Under the pieces are notes generated by a model. It did not search any database. It was given only the letters and a program-made list of their open reading frames with translations, and was not told the DNA's origin. A stretch of 63,096 nt of DNA, filler included, from Reclinomonas americana ATCC 50394 (Eukaryota): NCBI GenBank assembly GCA_048213135.1. It is 8 parts of 8 records of this genome, joined end to end, with 100 filler letters (N's around TTAATTAATTAA, not from the genome) between each part and the next. Parts side by side here need not be neighbours in the genome. Positions count along the whole stretch, not along the records: positions 9,429 to 15,861 come from AFZH01020653.1; positions 15,962 to 23,987 come from AFZH01020654.1; positions 24,088 to 27,828 come from AFZH01020655.1; positions 27,929 to 56,726 come from AFZH01020656.1; 4 more parts are not named here. One strand, 5' to 3'. Positions 11,147 to 56,522 of this stretch are shown here, piece after piece. The translations under genes and the position numbers were made by a program. How positions within the stretch are numbered: the first letter of the stretch is position 1; the number at the start of each line of letters is the position of its first letter.

Positions 11147-13208
11147 ATGTCGTTCAGAGAACTGAGAAGTTGCGGCGCTCCTCTCTCTGTGTGTGTGTGT
11201 TATGTTATGTGCTCATCTTGTGTGCGTGCGTGTATGTGTCAGACTTTGTGGAGAACTTGCGGGCGTTGGGGTACCCGCGGTCGGTGTCGATGGAGAGCTT
11301 TCGCTCGGCGAACTTTCGCATGATGGCTGAGATTGCCTCGTGGCTTGTGCACAAGTTGTGTCTGCTCTCTGTCTCTCTCTGAGAGGCCACTTTGGCGCTC
11401 ATTTTGAAGTCGTGGTGTTTGTTTGTCATTAGGTACGATCCGTCGTTGGATGTGCCGGTTGACATTGAGGACGAGGAGGAGCGTATTGCGTTTGTGCGCA
11501 ACGTGGCGCATGTGATGGTCAGTCTTGCTCTCACACACACACTCTTGCTCTTTGCGTCTTCTTACACGCTGGTTGAGCGCAGCTGACCAAGGCACACATC
11601 AAGCTCAACACAAAGAAGCTGTATGGCTCGGATGGATACGCAGTGAAGGAGCTGCTGAAGATCTCGTCGCTGCTGAAGCGCGCCATGGAGTCCAAGGATC
11701 AGCCGGTGCGTGGTCTCTCTCTCACACACACACACTCTTCAATCTCTCATGTGTCGCGAGAGCAGGATGTGACTCCGCAAGAGATGGAGCGCGGGGTGGT
11801 GGACACGAAGCAGACGCGCACGCTGGCCACGGAGCTCACCAAGCGCGGCGCCGACCTGTCGAAGCACCTGGAGCGCGAGGTCGAGCTGCGGGTGAGTTGT
11901 CATTATTTTGCGCGCGCGCCATGATTGCAGTGGTGTCCGATTTCGCGTGTCTCACGTGGGGCGTGTGTAACAGGAGGAGCGCCACAAGGCCAGCTCGCGT
12001 ACGATTGAGTTTGACGAGGTGGAGGCGTTTATTCGCGAGTTTCGTCGACTTGCTTGCACCACGCGGGGTGTTGTTGGGTGAGAGGGCCTCACTTCGTGCA
12101 TCGCAGGGACATTGAGAATGCACAGGAGGAGATGCGAAACCTGCGGGCGCGCATCGAGAACATGACGTCGGACTCGCGCAACTTGGAGCAGAAGATTGAG
12201 CGGAAACGTGGTGAGCTGGAGCGCGGCAAGAAGCGCCTCAAGTCGTACCAGAACATCCGGCCCGGGTTCATGGACGAGTACGAGAAGCTGGAGCGCGAGC
12301 TCAAGGGTCTCTTTGCGTTCTACGCCGACAAGTTCCGCACGCTGCAGTACTTGGAGAACGAGAAGCAAAAGTACGATACAGAGGAGGCGGCGCGGTTGGA
12401 GAAGGGCAAGAAGAAGCTGGAGGATTTGAAGGTCAGGGTATGAGTATTTAAGTAGGGTCAGAGCCCCATGGGAGCTGAACGTGCGCGCGTCTCTTCTCAG
12501 ACGCGACTGCGCGAGCAAGAACGCAAGCTGCTGGAGGGTGACACGCTGGGCGAGGACGAGCTGGACGAGGCCATGCGTTTCGTTTTTCTTACTGCATTTT
12601 CTCTCTTCCGAGAAGAAGTGCCCACTTTTTCTTGTCGCACACAGATGCCGTGTCAAGGCGTGCTGCGGGTGGTGCCGGTGGCGGTGGTGGTGGTCTGAAC
12701 AATGCTCACGGTGGTGGCGGCAGCGCAGGCGACTACCGGCAAGGACAGGGCGTCAGCGGCGTGCCTGGTCGGGGTGCAGCTGGTGGTGGTGGTGCGCCAG
12801 GCCGGGGCGGTGGTGGCGGCGGCGGCGGTAACGCAGGCATGGATGCATCGGGCGGTGCCGGCAGTGGCAAGAGAAGCAAGTCGCGCGCCATGAAGCGACC
12901 AGGCGCCGCGTCGTCACGACGCTCAAGAGGTTGGTTTTGTTGACAAGAGAAGCAGCAGGAAGCAGAGGGCGCAGCGAGTGTTCTGAACCCTTGTCTGTGC
13001 CGACACAGCACATGCCAACATGCAAGGCAACATGTTTGGCGGCAGCAGCGACGAGTCGGACGATGTCAGCGACATGGACTCGAGCGACGGCGAAGTCGAG
13101 ATTGCTGGCGGCGGCGATTCGGAAGATCTTTATGGCCTCGACGACGAGGGCGACGAGTCGGAGGAGGAAATTGATGACGACGAGGACGATGGCGATGTGG
13201 GCTTCTGA
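11147..13208 (+). CDS. CLUAP1: Clusterin-associated protein 1 / IFT38 (IFT-B), multi-exon
   Basis: Spliced product [32 protein letters not shown]...LTKAHIKLNTKKLYGSDGYAVKELLKI...KKRLKSYQNIRPGFMDEYEKLE, with an acidic tail ending DDGDVGF*. Confidence 0.95.
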
Positions 13209-13522
13209 GCAGCTCGGCTGCAGAATGTGTGTATGAATGAAAAAAAGCCGCTCCTTACGTAACATCATACCTTCGTCCTGCCCAGTCATCGTCCTGTCGT
13301 TCCCATCGCTTCTGACTGGCGTGCTTGGTGGTGAGTGAACTTCGCCCACTGTGTGCTTCCGTGTGTGCATGCGTCTGTGCTTGCATGCTTCTGTGTGGCT
13401 TCTGGCGGGGGCGGCATGTCGATCCGCACCATCAACTCTCTCTCACACACCCTCTCTCTCTCTCTCCTCCCCGTCTCCATCAGGTGTGTGTTAGTGAGTG
13501 TGAGTGTGCACAAGCCGCAAAC

Positions 13523-15802
13523 ATGCCACTTGGTTCCGACAATTGGTTCCGGTACGCACTCTGTGTGTTTATGTGTGTGTGTATTTTCGTGAATGAGGAT
13601 GCTAACATAGCACACACTCACACGCACACGTGCAGTCTGGGCACGGAGTCCAACTTTGTGTACTATCGGTGAGACAAGAGAGAGCGAGCAAGTGAGTGTG
13701 TGAGATGCAGGGGACTGAATGCAAGCGTGTGTGCGCGTTTGCAGCAAGCAAGAGATGTATGATTTGCCCTTCGAGACTCTCGGTCTCGACCTGTCCATGT
13801 TTATGGCTGCGGCGGCGCAGTTCGGTGGTCCTCTTGGTTGCGTATTCACTCCCTCTCTCTCACACACACACACACGCAATCGCTGACGCGTGGATGCAGC
13901 GCTCATTCGGCACCCGCGCAAGTTTGTCACGGGCGGTGTGGATATGAGCCCCAAGCTCCGCATCTTTACGTCGTCTGGCGAGCGGCTTGCCGAGATCCCT
14001 GTTGCGTTTTTCTTTGTCCTTCATCTCGTGTCACCGTTCCGCGCTCTCATCGCCACGCGCACAGTGGGAGAAGCGTGGCATTGTGGACATTGGGTGGTCA
14101 GATGAGGAGAATGCGGTGGTGGTGCTCGAGTTGCGTTTCCCTTTTTTCTTTACCGCCGTTCTCGGACGGGCACTGATCGTGCTGGTGGTCTCTCGTCAGG
14201 GACGGCTCGTGCATTCTGTTCAACTTGCACGGCGAGTTGTTGCACACGGTGTCGGTGACTCTGGTGTGTGCAGCAGTTTCAGTCTCCCGGTAATGGTGTC
14301 GATTGCACTCACTGCGGAGAGGCAATGTGGTGTGTACAGGGTGAAGATGATCGCGTGGTGGACTGCAAGTTCTGGCCGTCGGGTCTGGTGATGATGACCG
14401 ACAGTCTCAAGTTCTACGCCGTCACCAACTACTCGGAGCATCGTGTGCTCTCGCTGCCGGATCCCAGTTGCGACGCGGCGGTGTCATTGTTTATATCCAT
14501 GCAGTTATTCTCATTCGCGCTTCCCACCGCAGTGCTCATGGCTCGACCGCACTGCATGGCCGTCATCTCGCCGGCGTACACGCTGAGCGGTGGACCGGAG
14601 GTGCTCGTCGCGCCCAAGGCCATCTTCAGTGAGACGGGCGAACCGATTGGCGGCTCTGTTGTCATGATTGACATTGATCGCACGGAAGATCAGGTGAGGG
14701 TGTTGGTGGGAAGAGACGCAACCGACAACAAACGGTGCTTTGCCAACACGCACACCCGCAGGGTCTGGGTGGCGGTCCGTTCCTGGCCATGAGTGTGTCG
14801 CCGAGTGGGAGATACGTGGCGCTCTTTTGCAACAATGGCGTCATCAAGGTGACGGGTGCCGACTTTGCCAAGATTGTCACCGAGTTCGACACCAAGGGTG
14901 ATGTGCCGCCGACGCAAATGGTGTGGTGAGTGAGCCAAAGCGGCGAATCGACACGTGGGCATCTGCAGTGCGGCAGCGTGGTGTGCGTTCTCACCTGTCC
15001 TCCTTCCCGCAGGTGTGGCGAGGACACGGTGTGTTTGTACTGGGACCAGGAGGCCATGGAGTCCGACACCACGCTGGTGCTGATGGTGGGGCCGCACGGC
15101 TACTACGAGCGCTTCCTCTACGATTCATCCGTCCTGCTGGTGCCGGAGATTGATGGTGTGCGCATCTTTTCGAATTCGGTGTGCGAGTTCTTGGAGAAGG
15201 TGCCGCTGGGAACGGTGGAGATCTTCGAGGTCGGCTCCGTCTCGCCTCCTGCGCTGTTGTTCGACGCCTTCAAGGAGTTCAATGTTGCGTTCCCGTGGCC
15301 AAGGCGTGAGGGGGTGTTTTTTTCTCAACGATGCGGCGTGAGCAGGAGCGGAGTCCCAACGGCATCAAGCACATTCAGCACATTCGAGAGTCACTCGGGC
15401 CGGCCGTCGATGTGTGCATTGAGGCCGCCGGCAACGAACTGGACATCAGTGTGCAAATGGACTTGCTAAAGGTGAGCGAGAGAGAGAGAGAGGGAGGGAG
15501 AGGAAGGGTTAGAGCAGCACCTGATACATTGCGTGACACAGGCGGCGTCGTACGGCAAGGCATTTTGTGACTTTTACGATCTCGACAAGTTTGTGGACAT
15601 GTGCAAGTTCTTGCGTGTGTTGAACGCTTGCCGGCATCGCTCCGTGGGCATCGGCATCACCTACAAGCAGTTCGAGGCGTTGACTCTCCCCGTGCTCCTC
15701 GATCGCCTGGTGTACCGACACTTGCACTTGCTGGCGGTGAGGATATGCGACTACATGGACGTGCCACCGGACAAGGTCCTCGTGCACTGGGCATGTCGCA
15801 AG
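13523..15802 (+). CDS. VPS16: Vacuolar protein sorting 16 (HOPS/CORVET), 5' portion, truncated by the gap
   Basis: YYRKQEMY...AAAQFGGPLALIR...LRIFTSSGERLAEIPW...PPTQMVWCG...LVPEIDGVRIFS...LLKAASYGKAF...LRVLNACRHRSVGIGITYKQF...VLVHWACRK. Confidence 0.93.
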
Positions 15803-15961
15803 GTACGCGTCGTCGCTCACCGACCACGAATCTTTATCTGCTGCGCTGTGCTGAAATACCANNNNNNNNNNNNNNNNNNNNNNNNNNNNNNNNNNNNNNN
15901 NNNNNTTAATTAATTAANNNNNNNNNNNNNNNNNNNNNNNNNNNNNNNNNNNNNNNNNNNN

Positions 15962-16913: not shown

Positions 16914-16968
16914 TGAAGGAAGGGTGTGGGACTCAATCAAAAGGACATCTTCCAAGTACACTGCACGC

Positions 16969-23806: not shown

Positions 23807-23829
23807 GGTTTGTGTGTGTTGAGGCACTG

Positions 23830-23832
<3 letters not shown>

Positions 23833-23882: not shown

Positions 23883-24103
23883 GGAGGAGAGAGAGTGTGT
23901 TACGTACTACCTACTACGACGACGACGACGACGAACGACGACCGACCGTCCGTCCGTCGTCGTCGTCGTCGGTCGGTTCGTTTAGTTNNNNNNNNNNNNN
24001 NNNNNNNNNNNNNNNNNNNNNNNNNNNNNNNTTAATTAATTAANNNNNNNNNNNNNNNNNNNNNNNNNNNNNNNNNNNNNNNNNNNNGTAGTAGTAGTAG
24101 TAC

Positions 24104-24267: not shown

Positions 24268-25336
24268 CGTCAACATTATCGAGATCCGCAAGGTGTCGAA
24301 TCCGAAGCTTGAAGAGCTCTTCCTGCGACGTCAGGCGGCCCTCGCTGCCGAGCTTGGCTATCCTGTGGAGCCGATTGAGCTGTACCACGGCACCGTGGAA
24401 GACGCCTTGCAGTTCATTCTGAAGCACAGGTGTGCTCATCCGGAGCTTCTCTCTCTCTCCCTCTCTCTCCCTCTCACTGCTCTGTTTACACAGCATGTTG
24501 CCGCCTGCCGATTTCAACGTCAATCAGAACTGCGACAATGCGCGCCGACTGTACGGTGCGCTTTGGCTGCCACTCATTTATGTGCGTCAGCTTCGTCGCT
24601 TATCTACTTTGTGTGTGTCTGTGTGTATGCGCAGGCGAGCAAAGGTCCAATCCGCTGTGCGATGTGGCGTGCCAGCATTGCGCCAGGGACCCGTCGCGAC
24701 ATCAGCGAAGCACACGGACACCGTGTCATATGTTTGGGTGCGTACGTTTGTGCATTGGCCACCACAATGTCGATGATTTTTCCACTGATGGGTGAAACGC
24801 GCAGACTCGGAGTGTACTTTGCGAGGCAGCTCGCGTTGCGTAAACGTTTTTTTGGCTTTGCGCTCTATTCCAAGAAAGCCACTCACTGTTTGTGTGTGTG
24901 TGTGTTCGTTGTGCAGGAAATCGCACCGGTACACTCATGGACCTCGTCGAGTAATATTGCGGTGCAGGGTGCTGCTCGGACGCCCCGAAGAGGTGCAGAA
25001 GCTGAATTCGGAGGCTGAGCGACATGACGATGTCGCTCCTGCGCCCGGCTATCACTCCGTGAAGGGCATCGGTCACGGCAAGAACGCGCCACGCGATCAC
25101 CTGCACCTGGTCAACGACGAATGTTGCGTGTGTGATTTGTCTATCCCTGTCTGTCTGTGTCGCGACTCACCCTTATTCTTCTGTCTCGCAGACATGTTGC
25201 GTCGAGACGGCGAACATCTTGTTGTCTTCTGTGTATGTGTGTGTCCGCGACTGACCTCTTCGTTCTCGTCTCGCGCAGTATCTTCCACCCGTACCAGCTG
25301 CTGCCGGAGCTCGTCATCATCTACAACGCCAAGTAA
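24268..25336 (+). CDS. PARP/ARTD catalytic domain, tankyrase-like, H-Y-E triad (3' exons)
   Basis: Spliced: IRKVSNPKLEELF...LYHGT...CHMFGLGVYFARQLAKSHRYTHGPRRVILRCRVLLG...GYHSVKG...NDEYIIFHPYQLLPELVIIYNAK*. Confidence 0.88.
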
Positions 25337-27528: not shown

Positions 27529-28597
27529 ATGCACGCACACAAGCGAGTCATCCCCGTCGAGAGCGGCGACGATTCCCCGCTCTCCGGTGTTTCTGTCGGC
27601 GACGAAGGCGTCGGCTCCAGCAGCCATGCGGTGGGACGCAAGGGCGTGTCGGCGCCGGCGGCGGCACGAGCGCCTTCGCCAGCCACAGTGGTGAAGCGCA
27701 TGATGTGGGACGGGCAGCACTCGGCAGCCGCCAAGAGCATCTTCTGGTTCGGCTGCTATCTGTGGGTCATCGGCCCGCTGATGTTCTTCATGCCACGTCT
27801 AGCGGTCGTCACCTCGTTCCCGGATCTTNNNNNNNNNNNNNNNNNNNNNNNNNNNNNNNNNNNNNNNNNNNNTTAATTAATTAANNNNNNNNNNNNNNNN
27901 NNNNNNNNNNNNNNNNNNNNNNNNNNNNGTCGCGCGGCTGCCGTACGAGACGTGGCTGATTGTGGAGCCCATGGCGCGCGTGACGGGCTTCATTGTTGCG
28001 TGTGCGTGTGTGGGAGAATCTCCTGGATGTGTTTGCGAGATGTCTTTGCCAGAGTGAGAGAATTTCTTCTCTCTCTCTTTCTGCGTGCGACTCACGTGCA
28101 CTCACACCGGTGGTATACCACCAGGTGTGCGTCTTTGCGTACTACTACGTGCGGACATCGATGCGCGAAATGACTGACTTTTTCCGCTTCACCGTGCACG
28201 TTGCGTGTGCATCGTCTGCCTTTTGTTTGCTTGCTTGCTTCCCGAGACTCTTACGCGACGTCGGCGTTTCGTGTGTGTGCTCGCAGACCCGCATGTTGCG
28301 TCATGATGGAAACATTCTTTTTGGGATCGCTCCGATCTCCCCCTCTCGCTGCGGTATCGATTCTTACCTCCCTGGCATGCAGGTTGGTTCCCTTCTTGTT
28401 CGCCGCTCTGTACTTGGCCGGAGTTTTGCCACTGTTGCGCGTGTGTTATCCCCTTCGGCCCCCCAGTTCCCACCCACCCACCCACCCACCCCCTCGTCGT
28501 GCGCAGGAGTCAAGTGCTGGCTGGCGTCGGCGACGGCCTCGGCGCGCTGTGGACGGCTTTGGCCCTCAAAAAGGACGGCCACAAGGTATTCGTGTGA
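27529..28597 (+). CDS. Small membrane protein (about 4 TM), resembles an uncharacterised bacterial membrane protein family; spans a gap
   Basis: SAAAKSIFWFGCYLWVIG...MARVTGFIVCVFAYYYVRTSMREMTDFFRFTVHTRMLVPFLFAALYLAGVLPLSQVLAGVGDGLGALWTALALKK. Four introns restore the frame. Confidence 0.75.
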
Positions 28598-28670
28598 CGC
28601 ATCTGTGTCACTCACTCCTCCCCCGTCTCCTGGACAGAGTTGTTGTCATAAACAATTCATTATATCTCTA

Positions 28671-40600: not shown

Positions 40601-41106
40601 ACACTGAGAACTGCAGTCCTTGCAGCACCAGCGACGCACTCGACGAGGTGAACGCCGGTAGCGAGGTGGCCACCAGGTGCACGCCGCCGACCGTGGTGCT
40701 ATTCAGCAACACTCGCGACTGACCGAGTCCATCCAGCGTCAGCGACGAAGTCCCCAACGTGTACACTCCGTCGGTGAGAAGCAGCGTGTAGTCGCCAGTG
40801 CACGATGCAAACGTCATGGAGGTGAGCGCCGTACCCAGCGAGCAGGCCGTCGCAACATCCGCACCACAAGGTGCGTTCGTCAATCCCATCGGCGACACAT
40901 TGACTGCGGCCGCGGGGGAAGGTGAGAACGAAGATGCTCTCACGCCAGCAAGTGCATATGTGTGCGTGCACGCAACTCAGACACGATGTCGCGGCGTCCA
41001 CTGCCACAAACGTCAGCGTAATGCTCAGCAGCAACGCGGCTATTAGACATGGGGGTCGACGACGCGCATGACGACCGCCGAGAGGAGGTGGCATCACCAC
41101 TCGCAT
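28671..41106 (-). CDS. Giant intron-rich membrane protein: signal peptide, PMP/POMP-like beta-helix repeats, Cys-rich region, multi-pass TM C-terminus
   Basis: Hydrophobic N-terminus (LIAALLLSITLTFVAVDAA). Many FxxN...GGA[ILVM] motifs (STFLSNKAAVDGGAMYV, YFSNNIAMTRGGAI). CxxC motifs near 30400-30650. PLYLNYRPNMIYWEALQLLRRVILL in the TM domain. Stop at 28671. Confidence 0.82.
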
Positions 41107-41258: not shown

Positions 41259-43446
41259 TCACAGCGACGACGACGACGACGGCGACGACGGTGGCTGGGT
41301 TACGCTGCTGCTGCTGCCATGTAATCTCTCATTCTCGCGGCGCAGACGTTCGATTTCGCGCTGCAGCGTTCGAATCTTCTCCAACGACTGACCCAGACCC
41401 GTGGTCATCTGTGCCTTCAGCGAGGCCACTGTGTCGGACAGCACACGGTTGAAGTCGGCCTCCTTCTCGTCGTGCACACGACGGAGGGCGGATATCGACT
41501 GCTGGAATCGTTCCGTGTCTTGCGCCGCCTGCAGTTTGAAAGCAAATGTTGTGACGGATTGGTCGGGGCTGGCTGGCCGCTATTGTGCGCGCACACACTG
41601 ACCTGCTGGGCCATAATCTCACTGGAGAAGCGCAGTGCAGCGTTCTCTTCAGTCAGCCGTTCCACAGTTTCCTCCAGCGAAGCACAACTGTGCACGCAGA
41701 TGAAAAACAAGAAATGTGAATACCCCCTCGCACATGAATGTCATGCTGCAGACACAAACAGACCGCTGCTCCAGCGCCGGAAGCGACAGTGCATCACATC
41801 CCATGTCGACCGTGTGCGGCGACTCGCAGTGCGGATCACATGCAGCGTCGCGCATCGGTACAGAAGCCTGCAATGACGTGCGACGATGACTGCGACGACG
41901 CATTCGCTGCTCCTCGCGCTGCGCCTCCTCGGCTGCTTCCTCTCTCCGCTGGACAGCAGCCGCAGCTGCTGCTGCATCGCGCGTCTGAAATTCCTCTTCC
42001 ATGCTGTGCAGCTGTCGTCGAAGGGTGGCGGTGGGATTTTGGTCAACGAGAACTCTGTCTCGCATGTCACGCGCACCTTGTGCAACAGCGACAACTCAAT
42101 GGCGTGACTCTCCATGGTCAGCGCCTGTTCTGCCACTGCAGCTGGCGTCTCGTCGCACGCATCCAGCAGCTAGAGTCACGTGAACTGAGTTCAGAGGACT
42201 AGGAAAGGCAGGGCTTGTTGGGGACGCCACGAAACTGCGTTGTAAGTGCGAATGACAGTGCCCAGCAGCGGCATCGGGTGCATCAGGTCGCTGTCGGACT
42301 GTGCGCAACAATCAACGGGTCAGCGGGGTGGGAAAAACACCTCCGCGGTGACGAAATCTCTCACCACGCCAAACATGGCCAGCATGCTGCTCGCCGCCGT
42401 AGGTGGCGACTGTGTGGCCGCCTTGTGTTCTGGTGACACCCGGGCGGCCTTTTGCGGCGGCGGGGACACCTTGTGTACAAGAACAAGTGTCAACACACAC
42501 AGAGCACGGGTCGAGGGCGCAGATCGATCTCACCTGCTGAGCATCACTACCCGTCGCCATATCCTGCGCACCCACCCGCACGTCAATCAACAACAGTAGA
42601 CGCGGCCGCAGAGCAAAACACACACGCACACACACACCTGCATGCGCGGCGGGCTTCCCGCAGCAGCATCCTTCTCAACAACAACAAAAGAGACAACACG
42701 TCAGGAATCGTACTCACAGGCCGGCCACATGTCCACGAGTCTCACCTGCACTCGCGCCGGCGACACCATCGTTGCTGCGTCCTACACATCACCAAACACA
42801 GTTCAGTACCTACGCCTGTACTACACCACGCGACAGCGCCACTCACCGCCATGGTGGCGTCTTCGGCAGTCTACATTACAAGAGCATGAGTAGAATGCGA
42901 GCTCACACACACACACTGTGACATCCACGCAGCCGCACCTGTGGCTCATCGGCGGCCACCACAGGCACGCCTCTGTGTGAGCGATCGCGAGGAGGCGCCT
43001 GACGAGCAGCCGGCTGCCGATGTTTCGCGAGTAAACAACACAGACAAAGAAAGAGAAAGAGGAACAAGAGAACGCAACACGAGGCGCACGCTTGGCCATC
43101 GCCACCACACCACTCGTCTGCGCATGAACAACAACAGCGTCATGTAACGTTTTCCCCCATTTCGCGCGCTTTTTTTGTTGCTGACCTTGACTGTGTTCTT
43201 CACCGACACTGGCTGTTGTGGCTGTTGTGGCTGTTGTGGAGGAGGTTTCTTACTCTGCTGCAGACGCTGCTGTCGCCACTTCTCCAACTGCTGTCGCCGA
43301 GGATCACCCGCAGTCGCGTTGACACTGAGTGTGCCCAGTGGAGCGCGCGACGAGGAGGACGACAAAGGCGCGTGGTGCACGTCATCATCATCATCGCCAC
43401 CACCACCGCCACTCTCGCGGCGACGAGCAGCGGCGCGAGTCTCCAT
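41259..43446 (-). CDS. Coiled-coil protein, multi-exon
   Basis: METRAAARRR...RAPLGTLSVN...RRQQLEKWRQQR. The final exon is coiled-coil: SLEKIRTLQREIERLRRENERL. Confidence 0.6.
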
Positions 43447-43492: not shown

Positions 43493-45991
43493 ATGGACTG
43501 GAACCCGGCATTGCGCTTCCTGTCAACACTCACAGTACATCGCACACACACGCAGAGACAGAGACATGGGCATTTCGGGCTCAAGTGGAAGGCAACTGGT
43601 GCTGGAGGTGCGGGCAATGCGTTTTCTCCACAGATGCACACTCGGGGGGTTTTTGTCCGACGCCACTCTCTCTCTTTCTCTCTCTCTCTGTATGTGTGTG
43701 TGCAGGTGGTGGAGCGCGACATTGAGGACACACACGAGGAGGTCATGGTGCTCACGTATGACACGGATATCCGTGAAGCACCGGGTGCGTGGCACATCAT
43801 TTTGTTGTTATGTATGTCTCTCTTTGTTTCCTCCTCACTCATTTTTCTGCAGCTCATTGGCGTGCTGCGCTTGGTGATCGTGCTCTGGAAGCGCTGCTTC
43901 AACGTTGCGTGACACAGAGACCTTTCATTCACTCTCATTGACATTGATTATTTTCTCCTGTCTCTCTCGCACACAGAACCCGCTCGTGGCGTTGCGTCTC
44001 TCAGTCTCACACACACACAGACACAGACACACACACTCATGTCTTCAATTATCGTCGTCGCACACAGATCCGCTGGTGTGATGTGAGAGAGGGTGAGCCA
44101 CTGGCTCCGCGTGTCAAGTTTGTGGTGCTGGTTTCGCTGCAGGAGGAAGGCCATGAGTCTGGAGAAGAGGTCAATTCACATCCCGGCTCCTCGCGCAGTG
44201 GTGGAACGACGATGACTGACTTTATTTGTGTGCTGGGGCGTGCAGGCCAAGGCGCGGATTTCGCGAGACTTGCGACAGGTGCACCATTTTGTGGCCAGCC
44301 AGCGTGTGCGGTCGCTGTCGTTGCCGCTCTTCGTGTACACTGTGTTGCCGCCGAGGGAGTTGTGTAGTGTGATGTGCTGGCATGTGTGGGGGAATTGCAG
44401 GCTGACGTGTGCACGCCGCAGAGTCGTCGAGGTGTTTGCGTCGGAATTTCATAGGGCATTCGAGTACATTGGCACCGGCGCCGCCGATGCGGCAACTCAA
44501 CTGACCCGTGTTGTGGTGTGCGTCAAAGGTGGCGGCAAAATACGGCAGGTGAGTGTTGGAAGCTGTCTCGGGAGAGCGAGTGCACTGCTATGTCGCTGAA
44601 TCTGCATTGCCTCGTCCAGCTGTTCAGCCAGTACATTGCGAGCATGTTCCCGCAAGAGGCCGCTCCTCCCGTGTGGGAGCTGTTCTTCTCCGATCGCCAG
44701 TGGTACTCGCTGAAGCAAGAGGTATCCGACTACATCGAGAGTGCGACTGGTGACCTTGTTCCGCTGCGCATCTGCCCGGCGCCCGACAATCACGAGTGTC
44801 TGCGCGTCCTTGTTTGCCGCTCGCGAGATGAGGTGTGCACACACGCACACGTATTCCGTGCACTCATCAGGTTGACTGACTGTATTCCCTCTCCTCCTTT
44901 GTGGTTGTATCGCAAGGTGGTGGACTTTACAGCCAATCAACGGTATGCGATCCGGCGACGCGAACCCGCGGTGCCGGTGCGATCACAATCTTCGCCTCCG
45001 ACTTCGTCTTCGACACCAGCTGCCGTGGCAGGATCTCAATCGGCGGCACCACCGAATCCTCCCGCGGCAGCAGCAGCACTGACATATGTATCGTCCCCCT
45101 CGCCACAGTCACCGCCACGGCCAGCACCTGCAGCCGCCGCCGCCGCCGCAGCAGCAGCAGCAGCTCCGCCTCCTGCGTCCCCTGCGCAACAAGCGCCTGC
45201 ATCGCAAGCAATGTTCGATACTGTACCAGAGGTGAACGTCTGTAGGCTTTTCTGGTAATGCGCACGTGAAGCTCTAACAACCTGTCTGTTGTTGCGATGA
45301 CAGGTGTTTTCGCGGCACAGTGCGGCGGAGCTGCATCCAGTGCACCTGACGTGGATGAAACCTGGAGGTGCTTTTGTCAAGGGCGTCTTTGTGCGCGGTT
45401 CTTGGGATAGGTATCAGCAGGCGCTTCGTCTTCGTGCCGTGGGGCACGATCGCTACGAGGTGACACTTCGAGTGCCGGCTGGGTTCTACTTCTACAAGGT
45501 CAGAACACACAATGTGTACTGTGCTCTTGAAGCCACGCTAACGGAAGTCTGGTGCAGTTCACGGATGACCAGTCTGCCACGCTGGCGAGCGAGCGTATCA
45601 AAGTGGTCAAGGAGCAAGGGACCCTGCTTCCCTTCCACCCACTGCATGTGCCTGTGACGTTCAGTGTGGCTCGACAGCACGAGCGACAGCACACCGTGCT
45701 GGAGTTCTCAGCCTCTAATGGTTACTTTCTGTGCGCATTCTTTCCGAAGACCGATGAAGGCGAGGCACTGGCGCGAGCTATCCAGGAGAAGAGCAGGTTG
45801 CGAGCGTGTTTTTCGTCTTTTTCTTTCTTACCGAGTGTTGAGCAGACTTGTCCATGCACAGCCAAGTACCACCCGATCCTGTCGTCTTCTTCACTGGCCG
45901 TTGGCATGGAATCGAACTGAAGACGGAACCATCGCAACTACCGGACCCACAGTGGTGCGCGGCAGCACTGGACCGAGTGTCGGCGCTTTAA
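43493..45991 (+). CDS. Protein with a C-terminal CBM48/AMPK-beta-type glycogen-binding module
   Basis: HPVHLTWMKPGGAFVKGVFVRGSWDRYQQALRL...YEVTLRVPAGFYFYK|F matches the CBM48 pattern. It is preceded by a Pro/Ala linker. The start is tentative. Confidence 0.6.
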
Positions 45992-47571: not shown

Positions 47572-48497
47572 ATGGTCGGTCACCTCTTTGTGTGAGTGAC
47601 AGCACGTCAGGAGTATGCACGCATCACTGTGTGAGCGAGGGGGCTGTGATTATTCACGTGTCATGACGGGTGTGGTGTTGACTCGCTCGTTGCTTCCATC
47701 CAGGCGGAGAAGAAGAGCAAGTCAGAGAACCCGATGCGCGAGCTCCAGGTGGGCAAGCTCGTGCTCAACATCTCGGTCGGCGAGTCGGGCGATCCGCTCA
47801 CCAAGGCGGCCAAGGTGCTCGAGCAGCTGAGCGGCCAGGAGCCCGTCCTGTCCAAGGGTCCGTTTTTTGTCAGTCTGCATGCATGCCATCCTCCTCCTTC
47901 TCGTGTCATGACACTCTTTCCTCCCCTCCCCACAGCTCGCCTCACCATTCGCCAGTTCGGTGTGCGCCGTAACGAAAAGATTGCGTGCCACGTGACTGTG
48001 CGCGGTGAGAAGGCCAAGGAGCTCCTGCAGCGCGGCCTCCGCGTCAAGGAGTTCGAGCTCAAGAAGGAGAACTTCTCAGCCACTGGCAACTTTGGCTTTG
48101 GTGCGTGCGCCCACATGCACGCACACAACAGTGCTGGATAGCAGGGGGCTGACTCGTGCGCGCGCGTTTGTGCAGGCATTGATGAGCACATTGATCTCGG
48201 CATCAAGTACGACCCGTCGACTGGTATCTACGGCATGGACTTCTACGTGGTGATGGAGCGCCCTGGTTTCCGCGTGGCGCGCCGCAGGCGCGCGAACTCG
48301 CGCATTGGCACCAGCCACCGCATCACGCCACAGGAGACGATGGAGTGGTTCAAGAAGGTGTGTGTGTGTTCTTTTTTTGGCATCATCATCACGAAAGCAG
48401 CAGGGGATAGCAGGGAGAGGCGAGAATGGTTGGTTGGCAGTGGCTCACGCGAGTGATTTTTTTGTGCATGCAGACCTACACTGGCTTCCTCGTCTAA
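47572..48497 (+). CDS. RPL11: 60S ribosomal protein uL5 (first coding exon is ATG only; 4 introns)
   Basis: [37 protein letters not shown]...[17 protein letters not shown]...[26 protein letters not shown]. Confidence 0.97.
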
Positions 48498-48719: not shown

Positions 48720-50410
48720 ATGAGGTGGTTGTCGAGCCAAGCCACTCGGGCTCCTGCCGCGTTTTTCGATGTGTGCATTGCCGGTGGCGGGTTGGCCGGC
48801 TGTGCATTCGCCGTGGCTCTTCGTTGCGCGTTCTGTCTCTCCCACTCTCTCACTCCTCCTCCTTGCACAATCTCAAGTTTAGATGATTCGCAGAGGCGCA
48901 TCCCATGACACGGCATCTGCGCGTGGCCATCGTGGATCCCGCTCCCTCATCACCTCCGCCCACCAGCACCGCAGACAGCAGCACACGAGTGCATTCGATT
49001 CGCACCAGTGCACTCACTCCATCGTCGAGACGATTCTTTGAGCGTTGCGTTGTCCACACACCAGTCTCTCTCTCAGTCTCACGTTCTCTCTCACATGCAT
49101 GTGGCCCGGGGAGCAGAGAGTGGTGTGTGGCCACGCATGGAGGAGCTCGGTGCCTCGCCATTCCATCACATGCGCGTGTGGGACGAGGTCGGTGGCGGCA
49201 CAATTGGTTTCGACAACTCCAAGTCGCCGCTGGCACACATGGCGGAGAATGACCGCCTGCAGGAGGCGCTGAATGAGCGACTGGGCGACGACGCGGTGAC
49301 GTGGTTCCGCGGGCTCGGAGTGAAGAATGTGAGCGGAGTGTTTCAGCATGCCAGTCCGGCGGCCACTGTGCACTTGACGAACGGGACCACCATTGATGCC
49401 TCCTTGCTGGTGTGCGCTTGCCATGATGATAGTGATGTAGCTGGTTTGCTGATGGGTGGGGCATGCAGGTGGCCGCCGACGGTGCTGCGTCGCGAGTGCG
49501 GCAGTGTGTCGGCATTGCGTCCACGTCGCGGGCGTATGGGCAAAAGGCGGCGGTGGCGAGTGTGGTGCATGAGCCGGTGGCGCAGCGTACTGCGTATCAG
49601 CGATTCCTCACCACCGGTCCACTGGCGTTGCTGCCGCTCACCGACACCGTGAGCAATGTGGTGTGGTCGACGACGGTGGACGAGGCCGACGAGCTGGTGG
49701 CGTGTGCGCCCGAGGAATTCGTGCGCCGCGTGAACGATGCCTTCACGCGGCCCACCGCCGCACCACCAGTGTCGGGTGTGTCGGCTGTGCTGTCGGCCAT
49801 CTTCCCTCGACCCGAAATGATTGCCGGCGCTCCGTTGCCGCGACCACCACAAATATTGCAGTTGGAGCACCCGCAGCGTGGCGCGTTCCCACTGCAGCTG
49901 ATGCACGCACAGCGATATGTCACTCATCGGTGTGCGCTGATTGGGTGAGTTGTTGGTGACTCGGGGGGAAGAGTGCATGCCCGTGTTGTGACTCTTGCGC
50001 ACTGGTGCACAGCGATGCATGCCACGTGGTGCACCCGTTGGCCGGCCAGGGCCTCAATCTCGGCCTCGGCGATGCCGAATCGTTGGCCCGCGTAATCGCA
50101 CGCACGGTGGAGACCGGTGGCGACATTGGTGCAGTGACGGCGTTGGAGGACTACGAAAGCGATCGGCGACCCACCAACAGCATGATGACCCTCGGCATGC
50201 ACCTTATCAAGGGCACCTTTGAGACGAATCAACCGGCGCCGTTCGCCATGGCTCGCAGCCTCGGCATGTCGCTGCTGAACAATCTCGATTTCGCCAAGGT
50301 ATACTTGTTGTCGAGATTGTGTGTGGGGGGACGCGATTGGTGACTCTCATCTGGGTGCGCAGCGTCTGATCATGCAACAAGCGTCGGGCGAGAGCGCGCT
50401 GCGAAGATGA
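48720..50410 (+). CDS. COQ6: Ubiquinone biosynthesis FAD monooxygenase (UbiH/COQ6 family)
   Basis: DVCIAGGGLAG, VAADGAASRVR, AYQRFLTTGPLALLPL, FPLQLMHAQRYV, DACHVVHPLAGQGLNLGLGD; short mitochondrial-like presequence. Confidence 0.9.
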
Positions 50411-50585: not shown

Positions 50586-53018
50586 ATGAGCGCAGCCGAC
50601 GACGCCGCACTTGACAAGGTGACACCAACAACAAAAACGCACTTCCGAACTCACTCACTCACTCTCTGCCATGCAGTATCTGGGCCAAGCAGTGCCCGAG
50701 CAGGCCTTTGAGGTTGCACCAAAGGAGGGTACGTGCATTCACAGCAACAGCGCACTCCACACTGCTCGCAACTCACGCACACGCGCGCGCAGACTGCCCA
50801 CACGTGTTTGATCACGTGGTGTACCCTGCGCGAGAGCGTTACGAGGAGGTCTTTGATGGTTTGTGAGCCTCTGTACATGTGCGTGTGTGACAAGGCACAG
50901 TTGTCTCAGTGCTGATCGCTCCTCTCATTCAGTGCATCGACCATGCGGCACGTGCGGTCACGTGGGCGAGAACTGGTGATCATGAGTCGACATGCGATGC
51001 GATGATCTTGCTTGCTTGCGCGACTGGCACTCACGCGGCAGTGTGTGCAGGTTGAACTTGCAGTCGCACGCAGTGCAGTGCTCTCGGTTACGTGCTTCCC
51101 TTCACGCGCGGACAGTGGATCGCTTGGCACTCACGTACACAGTGTTCTGTTGTTCGTGACAGGTACATTCAGGGTCACATGGTGGACCACTATGCGGCCA
51201 CGCGTGGCGAGTCGGGCGAGACCAACTGCATCGCCTGCAGCTTCACGGATCTCAGTGTCGTTGCGTGCCTGCTGCTGTTGCTGCGTGTTTGGTTCCGATT
51301 TTTCCGACGCACTCACTCCATTCTCGTGTACTGCAGTGGTGCTACAAGGTTCCTGCTTTTGATGCTTGTCACTCACACACACCACACTTGCCTTTCGCTC
51401 GTTGTCTCACTCGTCGCTGCATCGCCCTTGGCAGTGTGATTCGTACATCAAGCATCCGCGCCTGACTGCGGCTCTGTCGCAACTGCACTTGTCCAAGTTT
51501 GGGCACTTGCCTGCGGGAGGTTCGAGTGATCCTGATGAGAGCTGAAACGTGCGGCTGTGGCCATCAATGTACCAACCTCTTCGTTTTGCCATCTGTTTCT
51601 TTTTTCCTTCCTTGTTTTTTTCGTGTTGGCAGTGGCCGCGGTGGAGGACGTGGACGACGCAGAGGAGGGTGGACCGCCGCCGACCGTCGAGCAGGTTGCC
51701 GAGGGCATCAAGCGAGGCGATTGTTGCGTGCGTGTACGTGGTGCGCAGTTGCGCCTTGTGCTGACTTCGCCGTCTGCAGATCGGCGCATCGTGGTGTTGA
51801 CTGGTGCCGGCATCAGCACGGCGGCTGGCATTCCCGACTTCCGCACACCCGGCACGGGCCTGTACGACAACCTCGCGCAGTACGATTTGCCGCGTCCGAC
51901 GGCCGTCTTTGAGTTGGAGTTGCGCACCAGTCCGCGTATGCTCTATGCCTACATCGCAGCTGATCGTCTCTGTCAGGTTCTTCCTGGCCAACCCACGACC
52001 ATTCTACAAGCTCGCCAAGAGTCTGTTCCCGGGCGAATACAAGGTGTGCAGTGGAGCTCTCGCGTCATATAGACTGCTTGCTCGCGAGCTCGGGCTGACT
52101 CCGTGGTGCTTGTTGTAGCCGACTCGTGCACACTGCTTCATCCGGTTGCTGAATGATCGCGGCCTCCTCTCCCGCAACTACACTCAGTTCCGTGCACCGG
52201 TGGCATGAATATCGATCGCAGAGCGACAACTGACAATGCGTGCGCGCGTGTGCAGGAACATTGACTGCCTGGAGCGGTCGGCCGGTGTGCCTCCCAACCG
52301 CGTGGTCGAGTGCCACGGCTCCTTCGCGTCGGCCTCGTGCACCCGATGCCGCAAGGAATACCCGCCAGCGGTCGTCAAGGGTACGCGTTCTCCCGTGTGG
52401 CGTGAGTACTGGTTGTCGACGCTCACCGACCATCTCGTGCAGCGGCCATTACTGCCGAGGAGATTTTGCACTGCTCCGAGTGCGAGGGTCTGGTGAAGCC
52501 CGACATTGTGTTTTTCGGCGAGTCACTGCCGGAGCGCTTCGAGCAGGCGCGGCTCGACTTGCCGCAGGCAGACCTGTTGATCGTCATGTTCGTCACTATC
52601 GTTCTCTCTCTCTTTCATCGTCATCGCTGCGTACGCTCACAGTCGCACCTGTGACAGGGGCACTTCGCTGCGCGTGGCGCCCGTCTCGCACCTGCCGTCG
52701 CTGGTCGGCCGCCGCGTGCACCGCTTGTTCCTCAACCGTGAGCCACTGGCAGGTAACGTGGCGCTCCACTCAGCACCCTTGCCTCTCATCGCCGTCATCC
52801 TTACCGCCCTTTCTTCTCTCTTTTTGCCGTCAACAGCTCGGTTCCAGCGTGATGCCGCTAACAGCACCGATGTGGAGATGCTGGGCGACATTGAGGATTC
52901 AGTGACGCAGCTGGCCGATCTGCTGGGGTGGCGCGAGGACCTGGACGCGGTGCATGCCGGCCTGCACGCTGCTGCAGGCGACGAGGCGGCGGGTGCCAGT
53001 GGCAGCGGTTCCGACTGA
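50586..53018 (+). CDS. zf-UBP (BUZ) domain fused to a class I sirtuin (SIRT2/3-like)
   Basis: DCPH...[11 protein letters not shown]...[12 protein letters not shown]...SFTDLSVWCYKCDSYI...HLSKFG, then [49 protein letters not shown]. Confidence 0.88.
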
Positions 53019-53294
53019 CGGAAAAACAAGGGAAGACGCAACTGCAGTGCAATCATGAATCATACATTGAAGCCACTGAGCTGGTGATAATGACACTGGC
53101 AGGCGGTCCGTGACAGTCGATTGGTATCGTTCAGGGCCGAGACAGGCGGTCAAGTGTGTGTGCCAGGCACACACTCGACACAAAAAAAAGAGAGGTTTCG
53201 CACTGTCGCCCGTCATCCGATCACAGACCGCACCGCCATTCGTCGTCGCCGGCTCATCGGCACCACCTCCCACGCACACCCACACGCAGGCCTG

Positions 53295-54003
53295 TTACTT
53301 GCCCACTTGCGCCACCACCAGATCCACCACCTCGGAGGGCGACTCGGGGAACTTGAGCTTGCGCGGTGGTCCCTTCTTGACACCACTCCACACCAACGAA
53401 TCGTTGACTGCAGGGCGCAGCAACGAAGAGTAAGGCGAACAGCGAAGAACAATAGCTGCAGAAGGGTAAAGGGAGGCGTACCGGTCACCTCAAAGCTGCC
53501 TCGCCTGCAGAGAAAAGGAGTCAGTCGATGATAATCATGAATGCATGCATGCACGTAATGCATATGATCGCTCTCTCGTCTCACCGCGGCTTGTCAGTGT
53601 TCAACGCGACCGTGAGGTCCGGGAAGCGGTCCTGCAACGCCGCCACGACGGCGTTTGCATGCCGCTTGTACACGGATCAGCTCTTGCTGTGGTAATGCAC
53701 GTCAGCGCCTGACACACTCTACAGAGGAGAGAGAGAGAGATCGCACCAAAACTCAATGGCCACACGCATGCCCGACGCTCCTGCCGTCGACGACGAAGCG
53801 GCGGGTGTAGTCGCAGTCGCAGTCTCCTCCTTGGCGGTGGCGGCCTTGGGGGCGCGCTTGCCTCGCTTGGTGGGCGGAGCTCCCTCGGCCTCTGCCGACT
53901 CTGCTTTCACGTCCTGCTCCTCCTCTGCATCCTCTGCCACCTCTTCCTTCTTCACCGCGGGCGCCTCGGAGGCGGCGATCTTCGACGCACTTCGCTTGCG
54001 CAT
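53295..54003 (-). CDS. SELENOH: Selenoprotein H-like (Rdx family) with in-frame UGA at 53679-53677
   Basis: Spliced ...RVAIEF-C-K-S-U-SVYKRHA...NTDKPRRGSFEVTVNDSLVWSGVKKGPPRKLKFPE...; basic N-terminal extension. Confidence 0.92.
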
Positions 54004-54074
54004 GGGAGGAGAAAATGCAAACACGAAAACTCCGACCGGAGAGTTCGCTGAAAAAACCTCCGCCTGCGCTGCTT

Positions 54075-55496
54075 TTATGCATGCTTCTTGTCCTCTGCAT
54101 CGTTGCGCACCTTTGCCGCCATGCCCCCGAGAATCGAAATCGCCAGTCTCTCGCTCAGCCATCTGCCGGGTCGTCGTGAGAGAGAGACGCGAGCGATTGC
54201 ACGATTGCAGCAACAAAACACGCAACGTCGGCACCAGAGTCAAGGCCATCAATTGCACCTGGTGCGCCCAGTACGGCATGAAGCTGTTGGAGCCTCGGGC
54301 GACGCAAGCAATGGCCGAGCGCGCAAAGGTGCGGGCCGAGCACTCGAAGGTGGTCTCCTTGGTGACGTGCTTGCTACTGAGCGGCGTCACCACGGTCGCC
54401 GGCAACACCGAGGCCACTCGGACCAGCGGACCGTACGGTCGGCATTCAAGCGACAGGGCACGAGAGAAGAAGTCCACAAACGCCTTGGTGCCGCAGTAGA
54501 TCGACAGGTAGGGGCTCGGCATGAGACCGACCATCGACGACAGGTTGAGAATGAGCCCGAGCCGGCGTTCGCGCATGCGCGGCAGCACCACGTGCGTCAT
54601 GCGCAGCAGTGACTGATTATTGAGGCGCAGCGTGCGGCACGAGGCCTCCACATCCGTATCGGCCACCTCTGCGCACCACCACCACGCACATCAGCACCTC
54701 GAGCAAACCAACCAGCCGCGAGTGCACCACACCTCGCATGTCGGCCTCGTTGCCGCCGACATTGTTGACCAGCAGCGTCACATCCAACGGCGCCAGGAAC
54801 TGCTCCACCGCAGCGTAGGTGCCGTCGAGATCAGGCGAGCTAAAGTCGACCGACAGCACACGACTCTCCACGCCGTGATCTTGCAAGTGTGGAGGTGAGA
54901 AGCGCGCGACAACTCAACGAAGAAAGGTTATACTGTACTCACCACGTCGAATGTCGGCAGCAATGGCCTCCATCTTGACGAGTGTGCGACTGATGATGGC
55001 CACGTTGAAGCCGAGAGCGGCCAGCTCCAGCACAAACGCCTTGCCCTGCGCGTGTGAGAAGAGAGAGACAGGTCATCGCCAATGACACATTCACACAGCA
55101 CAGGATGCAAGAGTCGCAACAATGCCGTCGGAGCCACCAGTCACTGCATGCAACATGAGACACACACACGAGAGGCATACAGCACAGGAGAGGCACAAGA
55201 CTCACCGACCGCCCACACGCCCTGCAAGAGTGCACACAATGCAATCATCAGTCACACATTTCTCCGCATTCTCTCTCTCACACACACACACACTCGCGCA
55301 CTCTGTCTCCTCTCTCACGCCCACGTGTGTGCACCTTGCGAGGCATCCACGGAGCCAGTGCCTTGCGCAGATTCTCATCCTTCATCGGTCCGAGCACCGA
55401 GAAGCGCACCCATTGCACAGTGACCCACACCCACTTGGCCACAATCAGCGCGCCCACCACGCCAAACACCCAACACAAGCCGCACGTGACTGACAT
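54075..55496 (-). CDS. SDR, very-long-chain 3-oxoacyl-CoA reductase type (HSD17B12/IFA38-like)
   Basis: N-terminal TM, WAVVTGGSDGIGKAF, LLVNNVG, YCGTKAFVDFFSRAL, and a C-terminal KKHA* ER-retrieval (KKxx) motif. Confidence 0.88.
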
Positions 55497-55547
55497 TCGT
55501 GTTGTGATGACAACAGAGAGAGGACTTTACGAGCGCGTAGGACGCAA

Positions 55548-56522
55548 TCACAAACGGTGAATGGTGTGGTGATCGGTGACGGCCGACAAGTTGTCGAGTG
55601 AGTCCCAGATGCGATACAAGAACTGCTCCTGGATCTTGAAGAACCAGGGTGAGAGCAGCACATCGTGGCGATCGGCGTCGCGAATGAAGTGCTGCATCTC
55701 CTGCTTGGTAAAGTATCGCGTCTCCTTGATCTCGTTCGGGTTGGCCTCGTGCGACACGTTCTTGCGCACCACCAAGATGTGATCGACTGCATAAAGGAGG
55801 AGTGTGACTACATGAAAGGCAGTTGCTTGGTTGGTCGTTCACGCGCGCAACTCTCGTGCTCGCCCCACACGCCATCCGACGGCGCCATGTAATGCAACCG
55901 CGTAATGTACGTCATGTCGTCGGTGCTCACATCGGTGATGCTGAGCTCCTGCTCCAGCTTGCGCACTGCTGCTCTCTTCACGCCCATGTTCTGCGGCAGC
56001 TCGCTGTCCATCTCCTCCGGGTAGAATAGCGGGTGTGAGCAGCACGTGTTGGTCCAGTAGCCGGGGAAGGTGATCTTGGAGTCGGCGCGCTGGTGCATCA
56101 GCAGCCGGTTGTGCGAGTCGAAGATGAACACGGAGAAGGCGCGATGCAGCATGCCCTGGCTGATGTTGCTCATCAAGTGGCCTGCCCAGCATTCAGCACA
56201 TTGTGCATGCAACATGCAGAGGGAATCGATGCACGCAACAGGTCTGCTTGGTCGCACTGCCAATGGGACTATCGTCGATATCAACCAGAATGCACTCCTC
56301 CTTCATCAGTGCCACCTGCACGGCATCAAAGCCCTCCAGCTCCGGGTCGACGGGCTCCAGCGGTCCTTCGGTCAGCGCGCTCATGCTCTTCCTGCGTGTT
56401 CCTAATGGCGATGCGACGCTTGTCAGAGTGCGTCTCCACAGGCCACGACTACTACTACTGATGGCGAGAGGAGAGCGAGTGCGAGCGAGGAGAGAGAGGA
56501 GGCTGCGCGACATGTGCGCCAT
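55548..56522 (-). CDS. IDI1: Isopentenyl-diphosphate delta-isomerase type 1
   Basis: EECILVD...CHLM...LHRAFSVFIFD...QRADSKITFPGYWTNTCCSHPL...WGEHEIDHIL...SPWF...TIHRL*. Confidence 0.96.

Follow-up and report, generated by a model that had tools for sequence, protein, structure and literature searches.

Do introns of Reclinomonas americana begin with two different 5' splice-site (donor) signals, or with one signal set at two positions relative to the cut? The question is raised by a 63,096-nucleotide stretch of DNA from strain ATCC 50394 (GenBank assembly GCA_048213135.1; hereafter the window, filler included), in which a first-pass annotation had divided the donors between 11169 and 56239 into a normal class, with G at intron position +5, and a shifted class, with G at +6. 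Only two of the 28 shifted donors that it listed (13837 and 45797) were said to follow an exonic G, whereas normal donors nearly all did, and it was proposed that the intron's +1 G takes over the pairing role of the missing -1 G, in a rule-based compensation that frees exon ends from sequence constraint. The covariation of donor class with the -1 base is confirmed here as real and strong, and we give a probability of roughly 0.55 to the reading that both GT-AG donor classes carry one recognition motif, which lies at two positions a single base apart with respect to the cut. All results refer to this one window of 63 kb of nuclear DNA, with 54-64% G+C.

Introns were called by a generalised hidden Markov gene model, rebuilt independently of the 28 shifted donors listed earlier. 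Exons were scored by codon-usage log-odds, GT..AG introns were modelled explicitly with bookkeeping of phase, and the donor term was a two-component mixture matrix over intron bases +1 to +9 only; because exon bases were never scored, the -1 base could not steer the intron calls. An acceptor matrix, a branch-site matrix with a distance term and a length term completed the model, both strands competed in one graph, and every intron received its posterior from a forward-backward pass. Five introns seeded by hand entered at an early stage (the acceptor of two was later placed elsewhere by the model), and later training sets were re-derived from the posteriors. Two simpler approaches were discarded. 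Calling from intron signals alone gave 63 introns in real against 14-23 in shuffled sequence, and 116 against 44 on reversal, which was too many decoys, and coding context was therefore needed; single-strand gene models strayed into shadow frames and predicted too many introns, and were replaced by the joint two-strand model.

Donors with G at +5 were classed as normal, those with G at +6 and no G at +5 as shifted, and the rest as other. (GT)n microsatellites lie at or just after donors, including those at 48358, 55289, 42500 and 11193, which makes the donor position ambiguous for the model. Two donors inside (GT)n runs were dropped to leave 111 introns with a posterior of at least 0.9, and three were dropped at a posterior of at least 0.8. 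An unsupervised two-component mixture fitted to intron bases only recovered both classes (in a noisy first set, 72% GTG[AC]GT-like and 28% GTTGCGT-like). Shifted donors made up 35 of the 111 introns, about one third, and were mostly GTTGCGT, against GTGAGT or GTGCGT in the normal class.

At a posterior of at least 0.9, -1 G was found at 62 of 73 normal, 3 of 35 shifted and 2 of 3 other donors (Fisher p=8.9e-15, odds ratio 60), and the proposed association of donor class with the -1 base thereby holds across the window. The corresponding counts for normal and shifted donors were 52/63 and 3/34 at a posterior of at least 0.95, 64/80 and 3/39 at 0.8 or above, and 77/104 and 3/46 at 0.5 or above; between 11169 and 56239 (at least 0.8) they were 51/64 and 3/36, and with (GT)n donors retained 63/75 and 3/35. 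Split by intron phase (phase 2 last), they were 29/34 and 0/13 (p=6e-8), 23/31 and 2/13 (p=6e-4), and 12/14 and 1/13 (p=7e-5). An earlier model without a donor matrix, in which any GT could serve, gave 50/74 and 6/39 (p=1.2e-7) in a set of 182 introns, many of them false, and a hand-corrected table (one false intron taken out, five normal and two shifted introns put in) gave 69/84 and 4/41. At the 18 junctions that could be fixed by Pfam spacing or homologue alignment, -1 G was present in 9/9 normal and 0/9 shifted donors (p=4e-5); these junctions were fixed by continuity of a Pfam profile across exons (Cluap1, VPS16, RPL11, RPS21 and SIR2) or by gap-free alignment to homologues (isopentenyl-diphosphate isomerase, IDI, and a COQ6-like gene).

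Shifted donors after G comprised 13837, 38112 and 51087, called by the model, together with 45797 from the first-pass annotation; 13837 and 45797 indeed read ttg/GTTGCGT and cag/GTTGCGA (exon bases in lower case, the slash marking the cut). The normal introns cited earlier were likewise found after G, namely all four of RPL11 (47575 atg/GTCGGT, 47858 agg/GTCCGT, 48101 ttg/GTGCGT and 48358 aag/GTGTGT), both of RPS21 (47081 gtg/GTGAGT and 46568 aag/GTTTGT), the three of SelH (53746 ttg/GTGCGA, 53584 gcg/GTGAGA and 53481 ccg/GTACGC) and those of VPS16 at 13552 (g/GTACGC), 13669 (g/GTGAGA) and 14926 (g/GTGAGT), while the cited exception in TAF2 is present at 61695 as gat/GTGAGT, adjoining the TAF2 domain. 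Counted as a bare k-mer, GTTGCGT occurs 37 times in the window, against 17.4 +/- 4.6 times when the sequence is shuffled with its dinucleotides preserved (none of 100 shuffles gave as many as 37), and 3 of the 37 copies are preceded by G. Such counts, made without gene models, gave no excess of G before the normal cores in the window (GTGAGT 21/70, GTGCGT 20/105), because most copies of these are not donors.

The anatomy of the two classes was described on introns with a posterior of at least 0.8, of which 79 normal and 39 shifted ones were left once the false intron 55555 had been taken out. Normal donors have A at -2 in 34% and G at -1 in 81% (exon information 1.1 bit), followed by G at +3 (71%), A, C or T at +4 (41, 32 and 24%), T at +6 (63%) and G at +7 (42%). 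The near absence of A at normal +3 (6%, with G at 71%) is unusual if the reader is a standard U1 small nuclear RNA, which has U at position 6. In shifted donors the -1 base is A, T, C or G in 38, 31, 23 and 8% (exon information 0.1 bit), followed by T at +3 (92%), G at +4 (77%), C at +5 (95%), T at +7 (85%) and G at +8 (56%). The suggestion that exon ends are freed from constraint is thus borne out by the fall in information from 1.1 to 0.1 bit, but not by the base composition at shifted -1, where A is enriched and G depleted (see below).

In both classes the median length is 70 and the branch motif CTCAC/CTGAC lies about 20-23 bases from a CAG acceptor, the differences being non-significant. 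Normal and shifted introns are mixed within genes (5+4 in VPS16, 3+3 in Cluap1, 3+2 in SIR2 and 21+11 in a gene with Chlamydia-PMP repeats), and because the 3' signals are common and the genes mixed, the classes look like substrates of one spliceosome. Both fit U2-type GT-AG introns: they start with GT and finish with AG, and at the 18 fixed junctions their removal brings back the reading frame and the colinearity with homologues. Shifted introns are spread 13/13/13 over the phases and normal ones 34/31/14, the latter being poor in phase 2 (phase 2 share 13/39 against 14/79, p=0.066). The downstream GT inside GTTGC/GT was considered as the true donor and rejected, since it would shift the frame by five bases, contradicting the IDI alignment and the Pfam spacing.

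Aligned in register, G/GTGCGT and /GTTGCGT differ at one base. Scored with the columns of the normal class, shifted donors gave +92 bits at an offset of +1 and -294 bits at an offset of 0. On the exon side, the composition of shifted -1 (A15 C9 G3 T12) was indistinguishable from that of normal -2 (A27 C21 G8 T23; p=0.93) and strongly different from that of normal -1 (p=5e-13), and shifted -2 was indistinguishable from normal -3 (p=0.95). Against a frame-aware expectation, which respects codon position and the following bases, shifted -1 held 15 A where 5.5 were expected (p=0.0002) and 3 G where 11.6 were expected (p=0.0014); normal -2 departed from its own expectation in the same direction (A 21 against 10.6, G 7 against 13.8; chi-square p=0.003). 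Shifted donors carry the hallmarks of a shifted register, with G and U at +6/+7 and not at +5/+6, the +1 G in the place of the -1 G, and the exon preferences moved. The whole motif has slid by one base in the shifted class, and to this extent the proposed rule-based shift, with +1 G replacing -1 G, stands; its pairing with U1 is less direct and is taken up further on.

Could the slide instead be a bulge, combined with ordinary compensation between exon and intron? A dependence between -1 G and +5 G has reportedly been described by Burge and Karlin in 1997 and by Carmel et al. in 2004, a weaker intron side needing -1 G more, and such compensation is seen within the window's normal class, where -1 G is present in 19 of 28 donors with a perfect intron side and in 45 of the 51 others (p=0.037). 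Applied to the shifted class, +1 G would sit on C8 of U1, the extra U at +2/+3 would be looped out, and the strong intron side TGCGTG would make the exon G dispensable, leaving -1 to drift towards neutrality. Bulge +2/+3 registers have been validated in human cells (PMC4856993), and the predicted energies of the bulged and shifted registers are close (see below). General compensation alone does not explain the contrast between the classes, because 19/28 is far from 3/39 (p=4e-7). With a bulge, moreover, -1 G should be favoured or neutral, whereas the 3 G of 39 fall well short of the 11.6 expected and A is gained, which points to a change of register and not to a trade-off in strength; the copying of the normal -2 column is not predicted by a bulge at all. 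In the bulged register the duplex would gain 3.6 to 4.6 kcal/mol from a -1 G, yet G is the rarest base at -1 of shifted donors. The slide is the better reading, and we consider the bulge unlikely.

In the mechanism that we propose for one motif at two positions, the normal class (about two thirds of introns) would carry the motif A-G/G-T-G-(A/C)-G-T, of which the exonic -1 G forms part. Shifted donors (about one third, consensus /G-T-T-G-C-G-T-G) would have the intron's own +1 G as the motif's first G, so that the exon end would need no G; the next motif base would be T instead of G, and all else, including the weak exon-side preference for A, would lie a base downstream. Donors would be bound in two registers by the 5' end of U1, and the cut would be set at the first GU by later steps (U6/U5). 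Duplex energies in both registers, a comparison suggested by the first-pass annotation, were computed by an evaluation that reproduces three predicted values printed in PMC4856993 (-15.2, -6.5 and -8.5). Normal donors averaged -6.5 kcal/mol in the canonical register when paired with the 5' end of standard U1 (AUACUUACCUG in PMC4856993).

Several points weigh against this mechanism and the reading behind it. With standard U1, shifted donors averaged -0.28 kcal/mol in the canonical, -0.79 in the shifted and -0.76 in the bulged register, and -1.4 unconstrained, and the expected pairing was thus found in neither register; because standard U1 pairs with GUUGCGU in no register, the pairing partner is one that we infer. 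Standard U1 also leaves the 95% C at shifted +5 unexplained, as A would be wanted there. The window holds no Rfam match to a U1 gene, so that an altered U1 is a guess, and A is the commonest base at normal +4 (41%, against 32% for C), for which the U that standard U1 has at position 5 is a better match than a G. A preference for C at +4 also occurs in Thecamonas and Micromonas, two lineages for which a standard U1 is reported (bioRxiv 10.1101/2022.06.08.495308). Pairing energy predicts that -1 G is tolerated in the shifted register as a G-U wobble, and the depletion of G is for this reason matched to normal -2 only empirically; in the plain genomic context of GTT, moreover, the depletion of G before GTTGCGT is non-significant (3/37 against 16.4%, p=0.12), as a bulge would allow. 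U6 would still need to accommodate the extra U after GU. As for the data, a single window supplies every count, and all junctions were predicted from sequence, independently of RNA. The model errs, calling with a posterior of 1.00 the false intron 55555, which fuses IDI with the next gene (as judged by alignment of IDI homologues), and missing or misplacing at least seven introns: those at 11169, 13552, 47575, 47858, 48358 and 53584 were read through or misplaced, and 45797 was left uncalled. A model trained on its own calls sharpens the class matrices, and the information content given for shifted donors is probably too high for this reason.

When all 16 base combinations at U1 positions 5-6 were evaluated, G5-C6 and G5-U6 were best for both classes jointly. 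With these hypothetical U1 forms, normal donors reached -8.2 and -7.15 kcal/mol, respectively, while shifted donors reached -6.0 in the shifted, -5.1 in the bulged and -0.52 in the canonical register with G5,C6, and -4.6, -3.7 and -0.35, respectively, with G5,U6. One internal mismatch (U opposite C8, in the case of a G5 U1) would be tolerated only if all other positions pair, and the near-invariance of TGCGT might be understood in this way, because perfect pairing elsewhere would pay for the mismatch. We infer that the motif is read by U1, whose 5' end would differ from ACUUAC, the standard form; a U1 with G at position 5 would be suitable. The further proposal that a non-standard U1 5' end (G5, perhaps C6) or a second U1 variant docks out of register on a third of the introns is tentative, and we rate its chances at somewhat below even.

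A second reader, either a variant U1 complementary to GUUGCGU or a protein, would make the likeness of the shifted class to a slid normal motif incidental. Such a reader would account for the failure of standard U1 to pair with the shifted consensus and for the preference for C at shifted +5 (95%), which the matching +4 of normal donors has in only 32%, and standard and modified U1 variants coexist in Physarum, as mentioned in bioRxiv 10.1101/2022.06.08.495308. The exon-side slide and the common downstream core TGCGTG nevertheless fit a single reader, all 3' signals are common to the two classes, which occupy the same genes, and a single G5 form of U1 improves the predicted pairing of both; we regard a second reader as quite improbable. 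That the shifted donors or their -1 bases are artefacts of mis-called junctions is suggested by the errors of the model (the false intron 55555 and the wrong RPL11 donors, in calls made independently of RNA) and is very improbable, since Pfam spacing or alignment with homologues places nine shifted junctions at an exact residue, the donor term is blind to exon bases so that false calls would dilute the contrast and not create it, and the independent calls of the first-pass annotation agree with those of the model. Just as remote is a separate family of introns with a 5' end common by descent, whether recent introner-like elements or minor-spliceosome introns: the first eight bases are highly uniform, but an all-against-all blastn of 118 intron interiors gave eight short low-complexity hits with the classes mixed, length, branch motif and acceptor are as in normal introns, and the shifted consensus GTTGCGTG is unlike U12-type donors, which are of the RTATCCTT type and go with a distinct branch motif.

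The closest known system is human, in that U1 binds certain atypical 5' splice sites in a shifted (+1) register (Roca and Krainer 2009, as cited in PMC4856993); at these sites, too, GU stands at the cut, G and U lie at +6/+7, and the +1 G faces U1 C9 in place of the -1 G. All validated non-canonical registers together total 1.5% of human sites in that text, against 35 of 111 introns for the window's shifted class, and the human example oligonucleotide given there, GUCAAGU, complements standard U1, whereas the window's GUUGCGU does not. The human cases described are rare exceptions, whereas the window's shifted class has a rigid consensus of its own and a slide of the exon profile that is visible statistically. 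In the bulge +2/+3 and other bulged or asymmetric-loop registers of the same source (PMC4856993), an extra U likewise follows GU and the downstream block is moved by one base, but a bulged register keeps -1 opposite C9, whereas the window's shifted donors seldom have G at -1 and their exon profile is displaced as well. Co-evolved U1 5' ends have been reported for Entamoeba (ACAAAC with GUUUGU) and, as a candidate, for Mastigamoeba balamuthi (ACGUAC with GUGCGC; bioRxiv 10.1101/2022.06.08.495308). There is a likeness to these amoebae in GC-rich donors with a C facing U1 base 5, where G would fit the window's shifted class, but they have one donor class in one register, against two classes here. 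The M. balamuthi genome is reported to have 60.7% G+C, with introns that average 137 bp and number 3.4 per gene (PMC8136499). Among the papers listed by searches of open-access literature text, none describes a donor class of the GTTGCGT type or a lineage with a major shifted class.

Human non-canonical U1 registers concern a small minority of sites and have been proven one site at a time. A genome with a slid register at about one intron in three, alongside normal introns in the same genes, would be a natural system for asking how the cut is set while U1 lies a base away from its usual place. Gene finders and splice-site scorers built on a single donor matrix with an exonic G would mis-score a third of the introns in such a genome. 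If a non-standard or second U1 does dock out of register, U1 register would be uncoupled from the choice of cleavage site naturally and throughout the genome; introns could then follow any exon base, which may favour phase-2 positions where G is costly. Further questions would be opened on the extent to which splicing constrains exon sequence and on the co-evolution of U1 and donors.

The shifted introns are given here by gene and position, with model posteriors in brackets. In Cluap1 (+ strand), the first intron (11169..11242, gaa/GTTGCGG) was read by eye, the model having taken a (GT)n donor at 11193, and its spliced product (19 letters across the junction) would match the Cluap1 N-terminus. 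The intron at 11355..11432 (caa/GTTGTGT; 0.96) lies between Pfam Cluap1 positions 11-30 and 33-60, with one residue and one split codon between, and at 12039..12106 (cga/GTTTCGT; 1.00) the Pfam gap from 150 to 173 is filled exactly by a 21-residue exon and a split codon; a further shifted intron on this strand lies at 12577..12644 (tgc/GTTTCGT; 0.99). Four shifted introns were found in VPS16 (+ strand), at 13837..13899 (after G, ttg/GTTGCGT; 1.00), 14001..14064 (cct/GTTGCGT; 0.99), 14130..14199 (cga/GTTGCGT; 1.00) and 15284..15345 (aat/GTTGCGT; 1.00). Pfam Vps16_N is continuous across the last (348/349 to 350/351), and the first three come from the gene model only; a word-based search found no VPS16 homologues, and a HMMER search with exon 14340-14693 gave six weak fragments. 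Also on the + strand are the introns at 25123..25191 (aat/GTTGCGT; 0.99) and, after a model-predicted exon of four bases (25192-25195), at 25196..25278 (cat/GTTGCGT; 0.99). A small gene on the + strand has four consecutive shifted donors within 27995..28506, at 27995 (att/; 0.89), 28200 (cac/; 0.68), 28295 (cat/; 1.00) and 28434 (act/; 0.99), each continuing GTTGCG and also read by eye. This gene (27995-28638) has very short exons, one of eight bases (28287-28294), and its four shifted donors are followed by aag/GTATTCGTG.

On the - strand, shifted introns with a posterior of 1.00 were called at 29646..29703 (gac/GTTGCGT), 30612..30684 (caa/GTTTCGT), 31360..31427 (ggc/GTTGCGT), 31544..31620 (cga/GTTTCGT), 32762..32824 (gct/GTTGCGT), 32905..32989 (gct/GTTGCGT), 35128..35197 (tcc/GTTGCGT), 37522..37606 (caa/GTTCCGT), 40904..40976 (tga/GTTGCGT), 42170..42235 (gca/GTTTCGT) and 58531..58598 (caa/GTTGCGT), and one with 0.99 at 37674..37735 (caa/GTTGAGT). 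On the + strand, 43904..43976 (aac/GTTGCGT; 0.96) is followed by 45797..45861 (after G, cag/GTTGCGA), a probable shifted intron read by eye and given a posterior of 0 by the model, and by 51087..51162 (after G, tcg/GTTACGT; 0.98). The UbiH/COQ6-like gene (+ strand) has two shifted introns, 48823..48893 (ttc/GTTGCGC; 0.98), with a junction gap-free against six homologues, and 49044..49116 (agc/GTTGCGT; 0.98), also gap-free. In SIR2 (+ strand), 51919..51976 (gga/GTTGCGC; 0.98) and 52187..52255 (tca/GTTCCGT; 1.00) are fixed by Pfam spacing, since two exons of 22 residues each, together with two split codons, exactly span the gap from SIR2 position 38 to 85. On the - strand, the shifted intron of a short-chain dehydrogenase (55046..55120, att/GTTGCGA; 0.96) is followed by an exon starting at adh_short position 13, and IDI has two, 55787..55851 (aga/GTTGCGC; 1.00), where WGEHE/IDHILVV is gap-free with 9 of 10 homologues and the tenth has an insertion at the junction, and 56182..56239 (cct/GTTGCGT; 1.00), where KQT/CHLMSNI is gap-free to homologues.

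Normal introns fixed in the same way lie, on the + strand, in Cluap1 at 11518..11582 (atg/GTCAGT; Pfam continuous from 60 to 61/62), in VPS16 at 14926..15012 (gtg/GTGAGT; Vps16_N 266 to 268, with a split codon between), in RPL11 at 48101..48175 (ttg/GTGCGT; Ribosomal_L5_C 47 to 49, with a split codon between), in the UbiH/COQ6-like gene at 49945..50012 (tgg/GTGAGT), where CALIG/DACHVVHPLAGQG aligns gap-free, and in SIR2 at 52044..52118 (aag/GTGTGC; Pfam spacing). A further SIR2 intron (52588..52657, + strand; 0.99) is a normal donor that exceptionally follows T (cat/GTTCGT); LLIV-M-GTSL across its junction would fit sirtuins. The three normal introns of SelH (53408..53746, - strand, donors 53746, 53584 and 53481), all after G, were read by eye.

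Genes in the window, identified by Pfam on single exons or open reading frames, are densely packed and interrupted by short introns. Those on the + strand are Cluap1 (11.1-12.7 kb), VPS16 (13.5-15.9 kb), RPL11 (47.6-48.5 kb), the UbiH/COQ6-like hydroxylase (48737-50322), the sirtuin SIR2 (51.6-53.0 kb) and ubiquitin-S27a (about 57 kb), and those on the - strand are the giant, repeat-rich Chlamydia-PMP-repeat gene (28671-41106; about 33 predicted introns of both classes), RPS21 (46.4-47.1 kb), SelH (53295-53770), the short-chain dehydrogenase (54-55.3 kb), IDI (55.6-56.4 kb) and TAF2 (from 61.7 kb). A large repeat-rich gene at 1-10939 (- strand) has an open reading frame of more than 2100 residues, with no match in Pfam. 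SelH, split by its three introns, has an in-frame TGA at 53677-53679 within a CKSU motif; no selenocysteine insertion sequence (SECIS) or other RNA family reached the Rfam threshold in the window. The best word-based matches of the UbiH/COQ6-like protein are bacterial-type 2-octaprenylphenol hydroxylases of about 400 residues, relative to which it has an insertion of about 30 residues.

The best match of IDI, in a collection that includes EukProt, is 76% identical, and its nearest named relatives are early fungi and choanoflagellates, at no more than 67%. One homologue (P0004, 72% identical) has an insertion of 27 residues exactly at the site of the second IDI intron (55787-55851); the insertion is probably an intron that a relative has in this place and that was retained. 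Five metagenome IDI loci (45-72% identity) hold one GTTGCGT in all five together and are too distant to inform, and the closest of them (L003) has ordinary donors in the portion read. Seven 100-base blocks (44 N, 12 bases, 44 N), at 6492-6591, 9329-9428, 15862-15961, 23988-24087, 27829-27928, 56727-56826 and 61206-61305, interrupt genes, and the C-terminal part of VPS16 is cut off by the one at 15862.

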